Assembly (NCBI GenBank): GCA_043810775.1
Contig: JBDRNU010000007.1
Span: 5,050-69,049, forward strand
Source: an archaeon
GTDB taxonomy: Archaea > Nanobdellota > Nanobdellia > Pacearchaeales > GW2011-AR1
DNA length: 64,000 bases
Direction: 5' to 3'
Every line of letters starts with the position of its first letter. Position 1 is the first letter of the stretch. Position numbers and translations under genes: made by a program. The notes below the pieces were generated by a model. The model was not told the origin of the DNA. It did no database searches and saw only the letters and a program-made list of their open reading frames with translations. This document shows positions 1,994 to 57,823 of this stretch, piece after piece.

Positions 1994-2154
1994 TTGATTA
2001 TCTATTAACTAACTCCTGTAGGAAGTTAATGCGTTGTGCTGATAAGCACGACAGTTGGCAACCTCCTAAACCGCAAAAATGCGTGTTCATTCTTGCATTT
2101 TTGGGGCACAGAGTAGCGAAACATCAGTGAGCTACTCTGTTGGGTTGATTATCT
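1994..2154. repeat. Exact 10-nt direct repeat TTGATTATCT (1994-2003 and 2145-2154) bracketing a GC-enriched hairpin-rich spacer
   Basis: Both copies read directly from the sequence. The second copy contains the stop codon of the 2149..3156 gene. Confidence 0.6.
2010..2140. ncRNA. Candidate structured RNA or bidirectional terminator module (four consecutive hairpins)
   Basis: Four hairpins: 2010-2016/2021-2028 (loop TGTA), 2033-2040/2045-2052 (loop GATA), 2071-2082/2095-2106 (11 of 12 bp, A5/T5 core) and 2108-2117/2131-2140 (10 bp). By hand count about 48% G+C, against a much more AT-rich surround. Lies between convergent trpS and the KaiC-like gene. Confidence 0.35.
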
Positions 2155-3156
2155 GATTTTTCCGTCAACAGCCACTTTTCCACCAACATGCACTCCTGCT
2201 TTAGTAATTTCAAATGAAAATATTTCAGTTGAATGGTTAGTTCCCCTCATTTTAAGCACCTCAATTAATCTTCTTCTCCTGTTTTTTAGCCTTATAAAAT
2301 AAAGCAGAATAATACTGTCAGCTTCAAACTCCAAGCTTGTTGAAGAGCCCTCTTCCCTATATACTGGGTCTTCTTGCAAAGTCAATAAAGAGGTGCACTC
2401 CCAATTCCTTATTATATCAAATAATTGCAGAGCCGCCTCTCTTTTTGTCAGCTCATCCTTAAAAAGCAAAGCAAAACTAGAAACAGAGTCAATTACAAGT
2501 CTTGTAATTTTATGCTTTAAAATTATGCTTTCTACAGTGCCTCCCCCCTCTTCAAGCATGACTCTTATTTTTTCAGGAGAATACTCTAAAAATACAAATT
2601 TCCCTTCTTTCTCTAGTTTATCCAAGTCCCAGCCAAATTTAAGCATATTCCTAAAGAACTCTTCCTTTTTTTCTTCAAAAGTAATGTACAAGCAATTTTC
2701 ATTATTTTTTATACCTTCAATTAAAAATTGCATTGCAAAAATAGTTTTTCCGCCTCCACTATTTCCCACAACTAGATTCACAGAATTTTCTTCAAATCCT
2801 CCCCCAATAATCCTGTCAAATCCATGAATGCCAGAAGGAACTCTTCGCAATTTAACAGGTTTATTTTCCTTAATTTTTTTCCCAGATTTTTTGCTTTTAA
2901 CCTCTTTTTTAACAGGCCTTTCAGCAAACTTAAAAGCAGTATCAATATCCTTTCCATCCCACTCTTTAGCCAGCAGTGCTTTCTTAATGTCACTCTTGCT
3001 GTAACCTTTAGCTAAAGCATCTTTAATATAAGGGACTAGCTGGTTGTTGCTTCCAGATCCGGAACTTTTTTTCGCTCTTTTTACCCTGGATTTGGAGCTC
3101 TTTTTAGGTTTAGTTTTAGAACTCTTTTTATGAGATTTCTTTTTCCCCTTTTTCAT
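2149..3156 (-). CDS. Single-domain KaiC/RecA-superfamily ATPase, FlaH-like, with lysine-rich N-terminal tail
   Basis: 335 aa. Walker A GNSGGGKT, Walker B-like RLVIDSVS, and KaiC-family C-terminal signature LIEVLKMRGTNHS...FEITKAGV. N-terminus is MKKGKKKSHKKSSKTKPKK... Sits in the type IV filament locus. Confidence 0.8.
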   Translation of the reverse strand: MKKGKKKSHKKSSKTKPKKSSKSRVKRAKKSSGSGSNNQLVPYIKDALAKGYSKSDIKKALLAKEWDGKDIDTAFKFAERPVKKEVKSKKSGKKIKENKPVKLRRVPSGIHGFDRIIGGGFEENSVNLVVGNSGGGKTIFAMQFLIEGIKNNENCLYITFEEKKEEFFRNMLKFGWDLDKLEKEGKFVFLEYSPEKIRVMLEEGGGTVESIILKHKITRLVIDSVSSFALLFKDELTKREAALQLFDIIRNWECTSLLTLQEDPVYREEGSSTSLEFEADSIILLYFIRLKNRRRRLIEVLKMRGTNHSTEIFSFEITKAGVHVGGKVAVDGKIR

Positions 3157-30430: not shown

Positions 30431-31816
30431 ATGACAGCAAGTGTAACAAAGATAATATCTGAAATATCAAAATATAATAAGGAGCCTTTAGAAGAGCATA
30501 AGCTTCGCTATGATTCTTCTTCTGAAACCTTGGAGCCGGTATATTTCTGGATTTTAGATAAAATGAATGATGATTTTGATGAAGTTGAAAAGCTGGTGGA
30601 TAACTTCACTTCCTCCCCGGGAAGCGGGCATTTTTCTGAGCTAATGGGAAAATCAACACACATGCAAAAAGAAGCAATGACCACCATGTCTACAATCAAC
30701 ACACTAATTAGAAGCATAATTAATATTATTTATGATTTAAAGGAATTTAAAATAAGGTTAGGTTATTATGATGCAGCAAACTCGAAAAATGAATCAGAAG
30801 CTCAAGCAGGAGTTCTTGGTTTAAAGCAGCTCTGGATGGATAATGTAGATATGAAAAGGGGAAATACTGCACTAAAAGCAATGGCAGCACAGTTTTCCTA
30901 TGTAACTGTAATTGACGCATTTATGGCTGCAAAATCAGCTGACGATGTTGATAAAATGGACCTAAATGACCGAGTTAAGAGATTTATAAAGCCAAGAATT
31001 CACGAATTTTTTGACTGGAAAAAGCGTTCAGAATCAGAACTCAAAAAAAGATACGAAATTGAAAAAACATATCTTAAAAGCCAGGTAAATTCTCTTAAAT
31101 TATATTCAAGGTGGGTAAAGCCTTACCTCAAAGCATCATCTCAGCTTGAAATGTCAGACCAAGAAAATCCAGCCCTGGTCACAGCTTTTAATACAATTGT
31201 TTTTCAGCTAACACTAATTGGGAAAAAACCTATTAAAGTTGACCAGTCAATCGTAGATGACGACCTTCCAAGAGCTTTCAAAAATGTAAAACTAAAAAGG
31301 AAATACTATTCATGTGTTTTAGTTGATTTTAATTTTAGGGGAATTCCTCAAAAAGCCGGACAGCACTATGTCTTTGGAGGGCGAGCTGAAGTTACTTTTA
31401 GAGGATATACACTGAATGACGACGAAATTAAAATGCTAAAACAGAAATTAGATGATTCTGACTTGCAAGAAGGGCTAAGATTAGCTGAAGGAGCAACTAG
31501 CGAATCTCTGGACCAATTACAAGAAGATATCGAAAAATTTATTGAGGAAGATTTTGAGGATAAAAAAGAAAAAAAATCCAGTGATGATACTGACCCATTT
31601 TCAGCTTTATTTTCAGGTCTATTCAAAAAATCAGGCAAAGAAGAAAAGAAAATAGATTCAGGAAAGATTGACAAAGTAAAGCCTGATAATCATGTTGAAA
31701 GCATAATCAGAATTCTTGCTGAAAAAAAAGTCAAAGACCAGTGTTTTGGCTTATTTAATAACTATAAAAAAGCCCATAATATGGCAAACTATCCTACTCC
31801 TTATGATTCCACCTAA
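30431..31816 (+). CDS. Hypothetical protein, largely helical with an acidic C-terminal region
   Basis: 461 aa. No motif recognised. The 3' end is duplicated downstream (see the repeat at 31782-31947). Confidence 0.65.
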   Translation: MTASVTKIISEISKYNKEPLEEHKLRYDSSSETLEPVYFWILDKMNDDFDEVEKLVDNFTSSPGSGHFSELMGKSTHMQKEAMTTMSTINTLIRSIINIIYDLKEFKIRLGYYDAANSKNESEAQAGVLGLKQLWMDNVDMKRGNTALKAMAAQFSYVTVIDAFMAAKSADDVDKMDLNDRVKRFIKPRIHEFFDWKKRSESELKKRYEIEKTYLKSQVNSLKLYSRWVKPYLKASSQLEMSDQENPALVTAFNTIVFQLTLIGKKPIKVDQSIVDDDLPRAFKNVKLKRKYYSCVLVDFNFRGIPQKAGQHYVFGGRAEVTFRGYTLNDDEIKMLKQKLDDSDLQEGLRLAEGATSESLDQLQEDIEKFIEEDFEDKKEKKSSDDTDPFSALFSGLFKKSGKEEKKIDSGKIDKVKPDNHVESIIRILAEKKVKDQCFGLFNNYKKAHNMANYPTPYDST

Positions 31817-31947
31817 TCCATATAAGTAGTTTGCCGTTAACCAGACTCATTGCAGTAAGTTAACATGGTGAGCTGTAAGCTCGCGTTTGCCAAGCTTATT
31901 TTAAGCTTGACTTGGCAGACTATCCTACTCCTTATGAGTAGTTTGCC
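31782..31947 (+). repeat. Duplicated gene 3' end (25-nt direct repeat, 24/25 identical, 131-bp period) enclosing a hairpin-rich GC-enriched spacer
   Basis: TGGCA[A/G]ACTATCCTACTCCTTATGA at 31782-31806 and 31913-31937. GTAGTTTGCC at 31826-31835 and 31938-47 is complementary to the start of each repeat. Internal hairpins: GTTAAC...GTTAAC, GAGCT-GTA-AGCTC, GCCAAG...CTTGGC. Confidence 0.75.
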
Positions 31948-31995
31948 CTCGGTTAAATTCATTAAACTTATAAATTCTTGATTCCTAGTATTCTT

Positions 31996-32508
31996 ATGGC
32001 TAGAAAAGTAATTCGCGAGTTGCGGGAAGAAAAGTTTAAGAAAGTTAAGGAAATAAAAAAGAAAGAGGAGTCACTCGAAGATATAAAAGACAGCCAGGAT
32101 GTAAAAGAATTTGATAATTTTTTCAGCTCATCAGGAGAAACAGCTCCCTCACTAAAGCCTTCAGATCGAGCTCAGCAGGCTCAAACACCTGTTCTTGAAG
32201 ATACAGCTGGCAATGCTCCTTCAGAAAAAAAAGAGAAAGAACAAGTAACCTATGCAGGAGCTGTCAATGCTCCTGAATACGGCAATGTATACGAGCAAAT
32301 ATCTCAGAGAGTCGAAAACAGGCGAACAGATTCTCAAGTAGATATAACTCGTGCTCAAAGAATGAGTATGGAGCCAAGGTTTACAAGCGAACAGGAAATT
32401 AATTTTGCAAACTGGCAGCGGGAAAATCTCGAGAGAAAAGATTCTAGTAATGACTATCAGATAGGTAAAATAAGAAAAAGAAAGCGTGATGATGAGCCAT
32501 TTGACTGA
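31996..32508 (+). CDS. Hypothetical acidic, probably disordered protein
   Basis: Track ORF begins at TTG 31978. The first ATG is at 31996 (MARKVIRELREEKF...). Confidence 0.5.
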   Translation: MARKVIRELREEKFKKVKEIKKKEESLEDIKDSQDVKEFDNFFSSSGETAPSLKPSDRAQQAQTPVLEDTAGNAPSEKKEKEQVTYAGAVNAPEYGNVYEQISQRVENRRTDSQVDITRAQRMSMEPRFTSEQEINFANWQRENLERKDSSNDYQIGKIRKRKRDDEPFD

Positions 32509-37620: not shown

Positions 37621-40200
37621 CTAGAATATATCAAGAGACTCATCTTCCCCCTCATCCTCCTCCGCCTCCTTAGCTTCAGCTTTTTCCTCAGGCTCTTCTT
37701 TGTCTTCCTTGTTTTCTTCTTGCTTTTCCTCAGAATCTACCTGGCTTGCAAAAGGGTCAAATCCATACTCAACACTCTCACTCCACTCTTCCTTTTTTTC
37801 CTCTTTCTTGCTCTCTTCTTCCTCTTCCTCAGCTTTTTCCTCCGCTTCAGCTTCTACTTGTTTCTCTTCAACTTCAGCTTCTCCTATTGGTTTATCTTCT
37901 TTCATAGTACTATCCTCTTGCTTTTCCTCAATCTCAGAACCTTTTAAACCTTTCTCCTCCAGCTCCTTAACAAATTCAGAAATCTCCCAGGCAACATCAG
38001 CATTTACACTTATGCTGTCAATTCCGTGCTTAACTAGAAATTCAACCATATCTTTATTGCTTCCTGCCTGTCCGCAAATGCTGGTTTCAATATCATATTT
38101 TTTGCATACTCTAATTACATGAGCTAGCTGGGAAAGTACAGCCGGGTTAGTCTCATCATAAATATACTGCACTTCCTCATTATTCCTGTCAATAGCAAGA
38201 GTAAACTGTGTCAAATCATTAGTTCCAAATGAAATAAACTCAATTCCTTCCTTGCATAGCTCTTCAATTATCTGCACAGAAGCAGGAGTTTCTACCATTA
38301 CACCTACCTTTGCATCTAGAAACTCTATTTCCTGAAGAGTTTCCTTAACCTGCTTAACTTCATGAACAGAAATAACTTGGGGCAATAACAATCCTATTTT
38401 CGTATTTTCAATTCTTTTTAGCGCTCTTAACTCAGCTTTTAGTATTTCTTTAAATTTTAAGCCAGCCCTTATGCCATGCATTCCTAGCATTGGATTTGAT
38501 TCAATCTCCTTAGGTGCACCTTCTAAATTACTATACTCATCAGACCTGATATCTGAAGTCCTGACCCAAATCTCATCAAAATACTCTGCAATCTGTTTAA
38601 TGCCTTCATATATGATTTTTTCATACTCCCCCATATTCCCTTTCTTTAAAAAATAAAAAGGGTGTTTCTGGCTGGAGGCAATTATCCCTTCCAGCCTTGT
38701 AAGCCCAGTATGCTTTAGCCCGGTTAGGCTTGCTCTTTTTGCAAATCCAGGCAAATCAACAATAACTTTTAATTTTGTTTTTGTAGGTACAGCTTCCTTA
38801 ATCTCAGCTTTTTTGCTTTCAGCCAGACCCTCATATACCTTTCCGGTTGAGCCATTAACTGTAACTTCCATATCATCTTTTAGTATTTTAGTAGCTTCCC
38901 TGGTTCCAACAACACACGGAATTCCCATCTCTCTAGATACAATTGAGGCATGGCAGGTCATCCCGCCCTCGTCAGTTACAATGGCGATGGATTTCTGCAT
39001 AGTCACTACCATATCTGGATTAGTCATTTCAGTAACAAGAACATCACCTTTCTTTACTTTCTTCATATCCTTTAAGTCTAATACAAGCCTTACTTTTCCA
39101 GAACCAATTCCAGGACTGGCAGGAATTCCAGCTAAAATTTCCTTGCCCTCAGTCTCTTCAATTGCTATTGTTTCAGTAGTAATTGGTCTTGTCTGTACAA
39201 TATAAATCTCATTAGCTTCTAAGGCAAATTCAACATCCTGGGGCTTGCCATAATGCTCTTCTAGTTTAACCCCATAATCTGCAAGCTTTTTTATTTCATA
39301 ATCTTTCAATACCTGGCTTTTGCTTCTGTCTTCATTTAGCTTAACTAGCTCATTTGCTCCAGCTGAATTTCTGACTATTGCAATTTTTTTATTAGATATA
39401 TCCTTGCTTAGTATTTCTAAATCCCTTGAAACCTTATAGTGGTCTGGTTTTATCTTGCCAGAAACTATTCCCTCTCCCAAGCCATAAACAGCCTCAATAA
39501 TCAAATTGTCAGTCTGCTCCACAGGATCCTGGGAAAACATTACTCCAGACTTTTCAGAGTCAATCATTTTTTGAACCACTACTGCCACAAATACATCTTC
39601 ATGCTTGAATCCTTTTTTCAATCTATAATAAATGCTCCTCGCAGTAAATAAAGAAGAAAAGCATTTTTTAACATGCTCAATTAAGCTGCTTTTTCCCTTG
39701 ACATTCAAGAAACTATCTTGCTGTCCTGCAAAGCTTGCAGCGTCGCTGTCCTCAGCAGTAGCTGAGCTTCTAACTGCAACAAAAACCGGCTCTTTGCCTT
39801 TTTTTAATATAGCTAGTGCATCTCCAGAAGCCTGCTGTAGAGCCTCCCTGTTTATATCTAGATGCTCATATGCTTCTAAAATTTCTTCCTGCATATCTTT
39901 AGGCATTTCAGGAGTTTCAATTATTTCCCTTATTTTTTTGCTTGCTTCATCAAGTTCATCAGTATCTTCCTCGTCAAGCTTTTCTAAAATTGAGTATATT
40001 TCCTTGTCAATCCCAGTTTTTTCCAAAAAGCTCTTGTAAGTTTCAGAAGTAATTACAAAAGCCGGAGGAACAGGAAACTTGTTATTATACATTTCAGCTA
40101 AATTAGCTCCTTTACCGCCGACTTTAGCAACATCATCCTTGCTTAGTTCAGAAAGCCATTTAACATAAATTTCCTCCTGTTTAACCTCTTTTTTCTGCAT
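37621..40200 (-). CDS. ppsA: Phosphoenolpyruvate synthase (pyruvate, water dikinase) with a ~115-aa acidic C-terminal extension
   Basis: 859 aa. N-terminal ATP-grasp signature (VAKVGGKGANLAEM). Phosphohistidine swivel (TDEGGMTCHASIVSREMGIPCVVG). PEP-utilising TIM barrel (FISFGTNDLTQFTLAIDRNN). Confidence 0.9.
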   Translation of the reverse strand: MQKKEVKQEEIYVKWLSELSKDDVAKVGGKGANLAEMYNNKFPVPPAFVITSETYKSFLEKTGIDKEIYSILEKLDEEDTDELDEASKKIREIIETPEMPKDMQEEILEAYEHLDINREALQQASGDALAILKKGKEPVFVAVRSSATAEDSDAASFAGQQDSFLNVKGKSSLIEHVKKCFSSLFTARSIYYRLKKGFKHEDVFVAVVVQKMIDSEKSGVMFSQDPVEQTDNLIIEAVYGLGEGIVSGKIKPDHYKVSRDLEILSKDISNKKIAIVRNSAGANELVKLNEDRSKSQVLKDYEIKKLADYGVKLEEHYGKPQDVEFALEANEIYIVQTRPITTETIAIEETEGKEILAGIPASPGIGSGKVRLVLDLKDMKKVKKGDVLVTEMTNPDMVVTMQKSIAIVTDEGGMTCHASIVSREMGIPCVVGTREATKILKDDMEVTVNGSTGKVYEGLAESKKAEIKEAVPTKTKLKVIVDLPGFAKRASLTGLKHTGLTRLEGIIASSQKHPFYFLKKGNMGEYEKIIYEGIKQIAEYFDEIWVRTSDIRSDEYSNLEGAPKEIESNPMLGMHGIRAGLKFKEILKAELRALKRIENTKIGLLLPQVISVHEVKQVKETLQEIEFLDAKVGVMVETPASVQIIEELCKEGIEFISFGTNDLTQFTLAIDRNNEEVQYIYDETNPAVLSQLAHVIRVCKKYDIETSICGQAGSNKDMVEFLVKHGIDSISVNADVAWEISEFVKELEEKGLKGSEIEEKQEDSTMKEDKPIGEAEVEEKQVEAEAEEKAEEEEEESKKEEKKEEWSESVEYGFDPFASQVDSEEKQEENKEDKEEPEEKAEAKEAEEDEGEDESLDIF

Positions 40201-49274: not shown

Positions 49275-49346
49275 GCGCCAGTAGTATAGTGGTTATTATA
49301 CGGCGTTGCCAACGCTGTGGCCCGGGTTCGACTCCCGGCTGGCGCA
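49275..49346 (+). tRNA. tRNA-Gly (anticodon GCC), intron-less
   Basis: GCGCCAG TA GTAT AGTGGTTA TTAT A CGGCG TTGCCAA CGCTG TGGC CCGGG TTCGACT CCCGG CTGGCGC A. Discriminator A. No encoded CCA. TATA-like TTTGATAAA lies about 27 nt upstream. Confidence 0.88.
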
Positions 49347-49349
49347 TTC

Positions 49350-49375
49350 ATGGGATTGAAAAATCCCATTTTATT
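49350..49375 (+). terminator. Hairpin (8-bp stem, GAAA tetraloop) followed by a T-rich tract directly after tRNA-Gly
   Basis: ATGGGATT-GAAA-AATCCCAT (49350-49369), then TTTATT. Confidence 0.45.
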
Positions 49376-49478
49376 CTACCGGTATTTGGAGAGAGTACTC
49401 TGAAAGTGATGGTTTCGAATCACGAGCGATTTCACGAGTAAAAAGCAATGTAGCCCAGAACGAGTGAGGTCGCGAGAA

Positions 49479-49490
49479 GGCTGGCGCATT
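49479..49490 (+). repeat. 12-nt duplicate of the tRNA-Gly 3' end (GGCTGGCGCATT), 142 bp downstream of the original (49337-49348)
   Basis: Exact repeat read from the sequence. A shorter third copy, TGGCGCAT, is at 49536-49543. Confidence 0.6.
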
Positions 49491-51904: not shown

Positions 51905-53239
51905 TTATCCCCCGCTTGCTTTAACATAAGAATCTATTTTTTCAGCTGTTAAATTGCCCGCATTAATCTTATATCCTTCTTCACCTTCCATTTTTTTGAA
52001 AAATTCCCTGACTTCATTTAAAGATGAGCTAGTAGTAACTACATTTTCCAATCCATTTATGATTTTATATCCTGTATCTAGGAAGTTTCTAACAGTTTTT
52101 TCAAGATTAGCTAATCTATCTGTATCTTCTAAAAATGCTCTCCAGTAATCATGTCCTGCATTTAGTGGAATTCCGTGAGCTAGGGCTCCGTAGCTTCCTC
52201 TTAATGTACCTGCAATTAAAGCTCCTGCATAAAGCCCGGCAAAAAATTCAGCACTATCAATTGTTGTTATATAATCTGGACTAACTTTAAGTTTTTCAGC
52301 AAAAAGTTTAGTCTTAAGATAGTATTCTTCAAGAGTTCTAATAGCTCTTGTTTCTAAATTCATTTCAATAGCATCTCCATTTTCCTGAAGTTTTGAAAAA
52401 ATAGGATGTAAAGGCAGTGCCAAATCAAATACTAAAGGGCCTTTTTTTGTCTCTCCCGCATCTAAAAGCCTGCTTTTCATTACATGATGTGGGCAGGCTC
52501 CAATATCCCCGCTTATTACTTTTTTAAAGTCATTTTTTACAATATAAGTTTCAGCAATATCTTTAAAAGCCCTTCCTAATTTTTCTCTTTTATCTTCAGG
52601 AAGTCTTTCACCATTAGCTCCAAAATAAAGCCTGTCGCAATATTTTATGCAAGCCTTAGTTATTTTTTCAGAACTCATATAATCTTCAAGCTGTGCTAAT
52701 AATTCTCTTTCAATAATCCCACTGGCTACATGAAGCAATGCTATAGAAGAAATAGAGCTTTTTACATCATCCCATTTAGGAACCTCTTTTCTTCTCACAG
52801 CATCACTAACCATTCTCTGAAGTGTTAAATCAGGAACATACTCTCTGATTATAATCCTATTCTGGTCGCACTCAGGAACATTAGCACTATATAAGTAAGG
52901 AAATATTCTTACTTCTCTTCCATCAGTTGAAACCTTGATATTATTAGCAACACCAAGCACTGCTTTTTCAACTCTGAACTCCTTTTCATATTCCCCATTT
53001 TCACCGTCATATATTTTAAATACAGTTACTGGTTTAATAAGGATGTCAGAAGGCATGTCATATCCAGTTACTTTTACTCTAAATACCCTGGACTTTCTAT
53101 TTTCTTCAGGAGATATTTGATATGCTTCATAACTATTCACAGTCATGTCTCCAAAATTTCTGGAATAAACTTTTGACAATAAGTTGCATACTATTTCAGG
53201 CTCAATTCCAATATCTGCATTAGTATTTTCTTCATTCAT
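51905..53239 (-). CDS. Hypothetical protein, possibly a divergent kinase-like/phosphotransferase fold
   Basis: 444 aa. Weak resemblance only (VFKIYDGENGEYEKEF, IIREYVPDLTL, ISGDIGACPHHVM). Confidence 0.35.
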   Translation of the reverse strand: MNEENTNADIGIEPEIVCNLLSKVYSRNFGDMTVNSYEAYQISPEENRKSRVFRVKVTGYDMPSDILIKPVTVFKIYDGENGEYEKEFRVEKAVLGVANNIKVSTDGREVRIFPYLYSANVPECDQNRIIIREYVPDLTLQRMVSDAVRRKEVPKWDDVKSSISSIALLHVASGIIERELLAQLEDYMSSEKITKACIKYCDRLYFGANGERLPEDKREKLGRAFKDIAETYIVKNDFKKVISGDIGACPHHVMKSRLLDAGETKKGPLVFDLALPLHPIFSKLQENGDAIEMNLETRAIRTLEEYYLKTKLFAEKLKVSPDYITTIDSAEFFAGLYAGALIAGTLRGSYGALAHGIPLNAGHDYWRAFLEDTDRLANLEKTVRNFLDTGYKIINGLENVVTTSSSLNEVREFFKKMEGEEGYKINAGNLTAEKIDSYVKASGG

Positions 53240-57691: not shown

Positions 57692-57823
57692 CCCCCGGTG
57701 GCTCAATGGTAGAGCGTCTGGCTGTAGATTGCTAGGGTGGATTTTCCATTCAGGAAATAAAATGAAACCTGAGAAGCCTACGCTGAAACTAGAAGGTCGG
57801 GAGTTCGACTCTCCCCCGGGGGA
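57692..57823 (+). tRNA. tRNA-Tyr (anticodon GUA) with a 60-nt intron at the canonical 37/38 position
   Basis: CCCCCGG TG GCTC AATGGTA GAGC G TCTGG CTGTAG [60 nt] A CTAGA AGGTC GGGAG TTCGACT CTCCC CCGGGGG A. The C1:G72 pair is the archaeal/eukaryal tRNA-Tyr identity pair. No encoded CCA. Confidence 0.88.
57728..57787 (+). other. tRNA-Tyr intron (boundaries +/- 1-2 nt)
   Basis: ATTGCTAGGGTGGATTTTCCATTCAGGAAATAAAATGAAACCTGAGAAGCCTACGCTGAA. Intron CTAC pairs with anticodon-loop GTAG, as expected for a bulge-helix-bulge substrate. Confidence 0.7.

Follow-up and report, generated by a model that had tools for sequence, protein, structure and literature searches.

Archaea of the DPANN group have very small, dense genomes, usually held to be poor in mobile DNA. 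Modular hairpin repeats such as the pneumococcal BOX elements and the Rickettsia palindromic elements have no known transposase and are tolerated at or inside gene ends; long target duplications that are specific to the locus are not a feature for which they are known. Variable direct repeats, of 8-514 bp, accompany the insertion sequences IS1634 and IS1549, whose family is reported to occur preferentially among Euryarchaeota (PMC2266710). In this work a stretch of 64,000 nt (the window: contig JBDRNU010000007.1, positions 5,050 to 69,049, forward strand, assembly GCA_043810775.1; GTDB lineage Nanobdellota, Nanobdellia, Pacearchaeales, GW2011-AR1) was analysed around an open reading frame (ORF) of 461 amino acids (aa), whose 3' end is repeated 131 nt downstream. 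This 131-nt period is very probably the footprint of one insertion with target duplication just 3' of the stop codon. The inserted unit, at 31836-31912, is a member of a genus-restricted, non-autonomous, three-hairpin family without inverted ends.

The source genome has about 1 Mb, 33% G+C, an estimated completeness of 80% and tRNAs with introns, and the window is part of its contig C7. The top matches of the window proteins are to metagenome-assembled genomes of Nanoarchaeota and Pacearchaeota. The 461-aa protein belongs to a very large family, DPANN-wide and in DPANN metagenomes (more than 2600 homologues with E of 1e-3 or better), and has a strongly conserved C-terminal motif, FD(I/V)YKKAHGM; zero matches were obtained in Pfam, NCBIfam and PDB. 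The features of the locus are the following.

30431-31816, plus strand: 461-aa ORF (P0001), conserved DPANN hypothetical protein; its final 35 nt are the left target copy and part of a 19-nt extra segment.
31782-31806, plus strand: left direct repeat DR1, TGGCAAACTATCCTACTCCTTATGA, 25 nt; left target copy, coding for ...(M)ANYPTPY(D).
31807-31825, plus strand: 19-nt segment TTCCACCTAATCCATATAA, in the left copy only; supplies the present ...DST and the stop TAA (31814-31816).
31826-31835, plus strand: left copy of GTAGTTTGCC; these 10 nt close the target duplication in its 35-nt version; complementary to GGCAAACTAC.
31836-31912, plus strand: element core of 77 nt with hairpins P1-P2-P3; identified by two covariance models (R1, 50 bits; R2, 78.1 bits, E 1e-12), covariation and folds.
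31836-31864, plus strand: P1, GTTAAC...GTTAAC.
31868-31884, plus strand: P2, GTGAGCT-GTA-AGCTCGC, containing the invariant U·G pair of the family.
31891-31909, plus strand: P3, CAAGCTT-ATTTT-AAGCTTG, then the tail ACT.
31913-31937, plus strand: right direct repeat DR2, TGGCAGACTATCCTACTCCTTATGA, 25 nt; original gene end, (L)ADYPTPYE in the old frame.
31938-31947, plus strand: right copy of GTAGTTTGCC, holding the displaced ancestral stop TAG (31939-31941).
31964-31975, plus strand: TATA-like box AAACTTATAAAT of the next gene (ATG at 31996), intact after the insertion.

The two direct repeats are identical at 24 of 25 positions, with a period of 131 nt. No such match was found in 100 dinucleotide shuffles of the window, and the 24-mer has no further copy in the whole genome. 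The present ORF ends in ...MANYPTPYDST with TAA, and the downstream copy reads LADYPTPYE and TAG in the same register. Both the repeat with these two ends and the repeat stems had been described in a first-pass annotation, and both were verified: GTAGTTTGCC can form nine pairs of the Watson-Crick or G·U type with GGCARACTAT, as well as a T·G at the end, the A/G difference between the repeats included. The 186-nt region folded better than its shuffles on both strands (z of -3.97 and -3.91).

The period is short, and deleting one period restores a normal gene end, as would be seen if the gene end had been duplicated locally in tandem or by replication slippage, or if an intron-like RNA were spliced out at the repeats. 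An origin of this kind is nevertheless extremely improbable. Only 25-35 of the 131 nt are repeated, and the remaining sequence is a family member that is also present on nine other contigs. The excisable, intron-like element proposed earlier was likewise abandoned, since the stop codon of the ORF lies ahead of the element and the repeats are not joined in register by any bulge-helix-bulge motif. As to archaeal bulge-helix-bulge introns in general, the region gave 7 motif matches, a count at the level of the background (20 control regions, with a mean of 4 and at most 12), and this candidate was rejected.

In order to establish which gene end is ancestral, the C-termini of the best 119 of the more than 2600 homologues were compared. 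Exactly 8 residues follow the motif YKKxHxM in 44 of the 119, which is the modal length, typically as ...ASHPSPFE or D. The tail has 8 residues in the downstream copy (ADYPTPYE) and 10 in the present gene. The closest relative, a protein 67-68% identical from the same-genus genome, ends in CCTTACGAGTAGTT, like the downstream copy; its last codons are CCT TAC GAG TAG TT, compared with CCT TAT GAG TAG TT in the downstream copy. A TATA-like box comes directly after the gene end of this relative, and similar boxes (AAACTTTATAAAT and AAACTTAAATAT) precede its genes. Because the modal tail of 8 residues and the ending of the closest relative agree, the right copy is taken to be the original gene end, and the left copy is a duplicate that is now translated. 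The earlier suggestion that an insertion displaced the original stop, with the ancestral end kept downstream, is thus supported. The same-genus genome also carries an HD-domain gene (L011 4441-5079) between the orthologues of the 461-aa gene and a 170-aa gene; none is found in the window, so this difference is a gain or loss at the same spacer that took the element.

The left copy differs from the right one by the 19-nt segment, which is an imperfect copy of the repeat before it (CCTAATCCATATAAGTAGTTTGCC versus CCTACTCCTTATGAGTAGTTTGCC, 21/24, the following GTAGTTTGCC included). It could be a filler or a product of slippage. We favour error-prone synthesis at the insertion, because a later tandem slip implies a divergence of 8/19 in the segment, compared with 1/35 elsewhere in the repeat.

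Every copy of the family folds as P1 (ATTAACT…AGTTAAT), P2 and P3; in some copies P2 is extended or P3 contains a branched insertion. The elements are 77-150 nt long and contain no ORF. Two of the three spacer hairpins postulated earlier, GTTAAC...GTTAAC and GAGCT-GTA-AGCTC, were found to be P1 and part of P2, whereas GCCAAG/CTTGGC was not retained and the family comparison gave CAAGCTT/AAGCTTG (P3) in its place. Covariation was evaluated in a covariance-model alignment of 21 copies from both genomes, which replaced a whole-element MAFFT alignment in which P2 and P3 were misaligned. Standard pairs filled 96.8% of the cells, compared with 79.4% in shuffles, and none of 500 shuffles reached the observed value. 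Changes on both sides were found in 16 of the 22 pairs, and the pairing fell to 26-46% when the 3' partners were slid by 1-3 columns. In P1, ATTAAC/GTTAAT is replaced by GTTAAC/GTTAAC in the copy at 31836-31912 and by ATCAAC/GTTGAT in the sister genome. P3 has at least 7 unrelated stem sequences. With one repeat mismatch and the most divergent P1, the element at 31836-31912 counts among the older family members.

One pair of P2 is U·G in 21 of 21 copies. Because the complementary strand would give a C·A mismatch at this position, the structure under selection is one of the sense strand only, as RNA or single-stranded DNA. No terminal inverted repeats were found in any copy: the 5' end, (C)ATTAACTAACTC, is not complementary to the 3' ends (…GCTTGACT, …GGTTTATCA and others).

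When the region was compared with the whole genome by short-word BLAST, pieces of the spacer were also found on other contigs. A pattern scan followed by nhmmer with the conserved 5' hairpin gave 15 copies on 10 contigs. Covariance models for P1 only (R1) and for P1-P3 (R2) counted 14-15 copies in this genome and 6-9 in the only same-genus genome; 0 copies were found in 38 other genomes of the family and order, and 0 in 300 further genomes of the order. A degenerate element pattern had no match in viral contigs, and its sole match among the GTDB representative genomes was the same-genus genome. A single JGI metagenome match of this pattern lay within a coding region of higher G+C and was judged to be due to chance. 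No published description of a three-hairpin family of this type was found. The spacer core is one of 15 genome copies, many of them with target duplications of their own, which confirms the small mobile element that had been one of the initial interpretations. One further copy lies in the window.

1994-2154, plus strand: second family copy; core at 2004-2144, long form with an extra branched P3; 10-nt repeats TTGATTATCT.

The repeats of this second copy are at 1994-2003 and 2145-2154. It is located between two convergent genes, and the minus-strand ORF 2149-3156 has its stop codon in the right repeat. In most of the 15 copies, at most a few bases separate the element or its repeats from the boundary of a gene or tRNA; five copies adjoin tRNA genes, and three of the copies abut tRNA 3' ends. 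TATA-like sequences were detected upstream of several copies. On contig C2, two paralogous genes for Cys-rich surface proteins (38150-38670 and 51990-52509) are 84% identical over 520 nt, and both end inside or beside the P3 of an element; the stop codon of the C2 ORF 37978-38664 is the complement of the 3' end of an element.

The strong covariation in three helices, the invariant U·G pair, the tRNA neighbours and the upstream TATA-like sequences would also suit small structured RNA genes with a cellular function, the repeats being by-products of their spread and the present locus a non-coding RNA gene in a 3'-untranslated region (UTR). The persistence of the family in two genomes whose orthologous proteins are only ~68% identical points in the same direction. 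This explanation is considered improbable. The comparison with Rfam, which had been suggested together with the covariation analysis, detected only tRNAs at the gathering score; with looser cut-offs the element stayed unmatched (E up to 10), and so did 12 other copies (E up to 1). Among copies, P3 and the loop of P1 are wholly different, the two genomes do not agree in the number or the positions of their copies, and the locus-specific target duplications show insertion. A functional RNA is compatible with mobility, and hence is only a partial rival of an insertion. Of the structured 3'-UTR RNA envisaged at the outset, what stands is a consequence of the insertion: lying behind the stop codon, the element would be transcribed together with the gene.

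Flanking repeats were scored as the best ungapped match between the 90 nt around the 5' end of each copy and the downstream sequence, with 400 random positions as control. A score of at least 15 was reached by 7 of the 15 copies and by none of the random sites, and a score of at least 13 by 8 of 15 copies and 1.75% of the random sites. Taking both genomes together, locus-specific direct repeats of 10-44 nt were observed in about 13 of about 24 copies. Their lengths are 10, 13, 15, 15, 16, 24, 25 (35 with GTAGTTTGCC), 30 and 32 nt in this genome, and 19, 21, 24 and 44 nt in the sister genome. The repeats are mutually unrelated in sequence and length between loci and belong to the local target. 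At the 461-aa gene they hold the last eight codons and the stop, and at other loci 12 nt of the 3' end of a tRNA-Thr or the start codon of a 408-aa ORF. Some contain the promoter-like motif T(T/A)TAAA(G/C)CTT, which was found 54 times in the genome. The flanking repeats are target-site duplications.

A duplicated 3' end of a gene or tRNA is the usual scar left by a tyrosine recombinase. The repeats could then be the attL and attR sites of an integrative element reduced to 77-131 bp, a view to which the three copies abutting tRNA 3' ends and the repeat with 12 nt of tRNA-Thr lend some weight. It is nonetheless very unlikely: the repeats are unrelated from locus to locus, so there is no common core site, the same cargo of 77-150 nt is found every time, and the junctions contain fillers. 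The att-like remnant considered in the first-pass annotation was dismissed, since the flanking repeats differ in sequence and length at every locus.

The two junctions of the inserted elements are not alike. The 3' joint is regular, with 2-5 nt between P3 and the right repeat, and the 5' joint is irregular. Three copies show an overlap between the repeat and the initial 3-8 nt of the element (…CATTAACT), and in other copies a filler of 2-29 nt separates the left repeat from P1. The fillers at C2:22818 and C4:12705 reproduce the neighbouring repeat in inverted form (TTTAAAGCTTTC-GGTA-GAAAGCTT and ATTTAAACCTTTC-GAA-GAAAGATTTAAAAT, respectively), which would be the outcome expected of fold-back synthesis from a free 3' end. 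A copy without P1, at C2:22845-22916, lies within the left flank of another copy and has its own 24-nt repeat. In this part of contig C2 (22725-22930, minus strand), three promoter-like copies of TTTAAAGCTTTCGGT bracket one P1-less and one full element; the arrangement has the look of nested insertions, the second one lying in the flank of the first.

On the basis of these data, the following course of events may be proposed for the 461-aa gene. The target would have been opened with a long stagger and filled in, leaving 25 nt (35 with GTAGTTTGCC) on both sides, and the left copy would have received the 19-nt imperfect re-copy of the target at or after the insertion, giving the present …YPTPYDST-TAA. 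A discrete single-stranded copy of the element, RNA or single-stranded DNA, would have been joined by its 3' end to the nicked target. The 5' joint would have followed, as in target-primed copying, either via microhomology or once fold-back or slipped synthesis had taken place. The enzyme would act in trans and be encoded outside the assembled 80-85% of either genome. The insertion was probably tolerated in a very compact genome because the duplication rebuilt the gene end and spared the TATA box of the next gene. The variable stagger, the one clean and one ragged joint and the one-strand structure resemble target-primed copying, by analogy and not as proof. If an insertion is accepted, the single-stranded-copy route has about an even chance of being correct, and the involvement of an RNA intermediate is a more tentative proposal. 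No published prokaryotic transposition mechanism was found that combines the lack of inverted repeats, a one-strand structure with U·G, long variable duplications and fold-back fillers. It is conceivable, albeit doubtful, that this is the first archaeal mobile element that pastes a single-stranded copy (SINE-like RNA or single-stranded DNA; SINE, short interspersed nuclear element) into long staggered breaks.

Several observations weigh against an insertion of this kind. A clear flanking repeat is missing at 6 of the 15 copies of this genome. One copy is truncated at its 3' side, which is not foreseen in a purely 3'-primed copying model. No empty site was found in a close relative, the nearest genome being 67-68% identical in the 461-aa protein. 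The archived reads are DNA fragments at 2-4x, too thin for polymorphism, with no RNA runs. The origin of the 19-nt segment is uncertain, a later tandem slip being also possible, and the covariation alignment was fitted to a model and is so biased towards structure. No mover was found either, in searches of the six-frame translations of both genomes, which are 80-85% complete; integrases and other transposase families were not included in these searches. There was no RVT_1 domain above the cut-off in either genome, nor any DDE_Tnp_1, TnpB zinc-ribbon or Cas1 domain. Y1_Tnp was confined to the sister genome, where no element adjoins it.

Two details of these searches may be added. The lone weak RVT_1 match (15 bits) was the beta-CASP nuclease aCPSF1. 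The Y1_Tnp match in the sister genome, G001:C33:113-457 (L079 89-496, minus strand), corresponds to a 135-aa IS200-type Y1 transposase at the end of a short contig.

An insertion by another route also has to be considered. The elements could be non-autonomous derivatives of a double-stranded DDE insertion sequence with long, variable target-site duplications, its transposase lying on an unassembled contig, a plasmid or a virus. Variable direct repeats are also given by IS1634/IS1549, and the present element is, like a MITE (a transposable element of the miniature inverted-repeat type), small, non-coding, multi-copy and intergenic. Although this is the strongest of the alternatives, it is still unlikely. 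Terminal inverted repeats are absent, no DDE_Tnp_1 was found in either genome, and a self-comparison of the genome revealed paralogous surface-protein genes only, without any insertion sequence or repeated transposase-like gene. Moreover, a double-stranded cut-and-paste substrate does not need a one-strand structure with an invariant U·G, and a single junction with microhomology and fillers is atypical of DDE transposition.

A different insert and a tRNA were observed elsewhere in the window. At 49337-49490 of the window, a different structured insert of 130 nt was found right after a tRNA-Gly gene, flanked by a 12-nt repeat, GGCTGGCGCATT, which corresponds to the tRNA 3' end. The core of this insert has relatives with 84-87% identity beside tRNA-Glu (C25:79554-79614) and tRNA-Ser (C2:18912-18965), and it may represent either a second family of elements or a trailer shared by tRNAs. 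At 57692-57823 of the window lies a tRNA whose intron measures about 60 nt; it was assigned to tRNA-Tyr by ARAGORN on the genome. Introns of 12-68 nt are present in many tRNAs of this genome, some of them at non-canonical positions.

If the single-strand insertion reading is correct, this route of transposition needs no inverted ends, and its duplications of 10-44 nt rebuild stop and start codons, promoters and tRNA ends. The element could thus settle at the gene boundaries of a genome of about 1 Mb and the genes would not be killed. It would also involve an enzyme not yet tied to archaeal transposition, or one borrowed from the host or a virus, and finding this enzyme could reveal a new integration chemistry. 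The family may be a parasite or a domesticated RNA suited to compact genomes, given that the duplicated target regenerates the gene end or promoter that was struck. For annotation, it should be considered that such insertions yield false alternative C-termini and duplicated start codons and promoters in metagenome-assembled genomes.

Among the described systems, IS1634 and IS1549 share the long, variable target duplications with the present family. In contrast, those elements measure 1.5-2 kb and have inverted ends and a DDE transposase, neither of which was found here. The family resembles the MITEs in its small size (77-150 nt), its non-coding, multi-copy and intergenic nature, its target duplications and its presumed dependence on an enzyme in trans. 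It differs from them in the lack of terminal inverted repeats, in duplications that are variable and 10-44 nt long instead of short and fixed, and in its one-strand structure; a parent insertion sequence was not found. The REP/REPIN elements are also strand-specific intergenic hairpins, and a Y1 transposase gene is present in the sister genome. However, REP/REPIN elements lie beside a fixed 4-5-nt site without target duplication, whereas duplications are found here; Y1_Tnp is absent from this genome and the gene of the sister genome is not next to an element. With BOX and the Rickettsia palindromic elements the family has no sequence relationship, and the likeness lies in the modular hairpin repeats within a compact genome. 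Unlike the SINEs and other target-primed retroposons, the family shows no A-rich or partner-derived 3' tail, one of its copies is truncated at the 3' side, and no reverse transcriptase was found in either genome. With these retroposons it shares a short structured non-coding unit, variable target duplications and a likely dependence on a partner enzyme, together with a regular 3' joint and a ragged 5' joint marked by microhomology, filler and one 5'-truncated copy.

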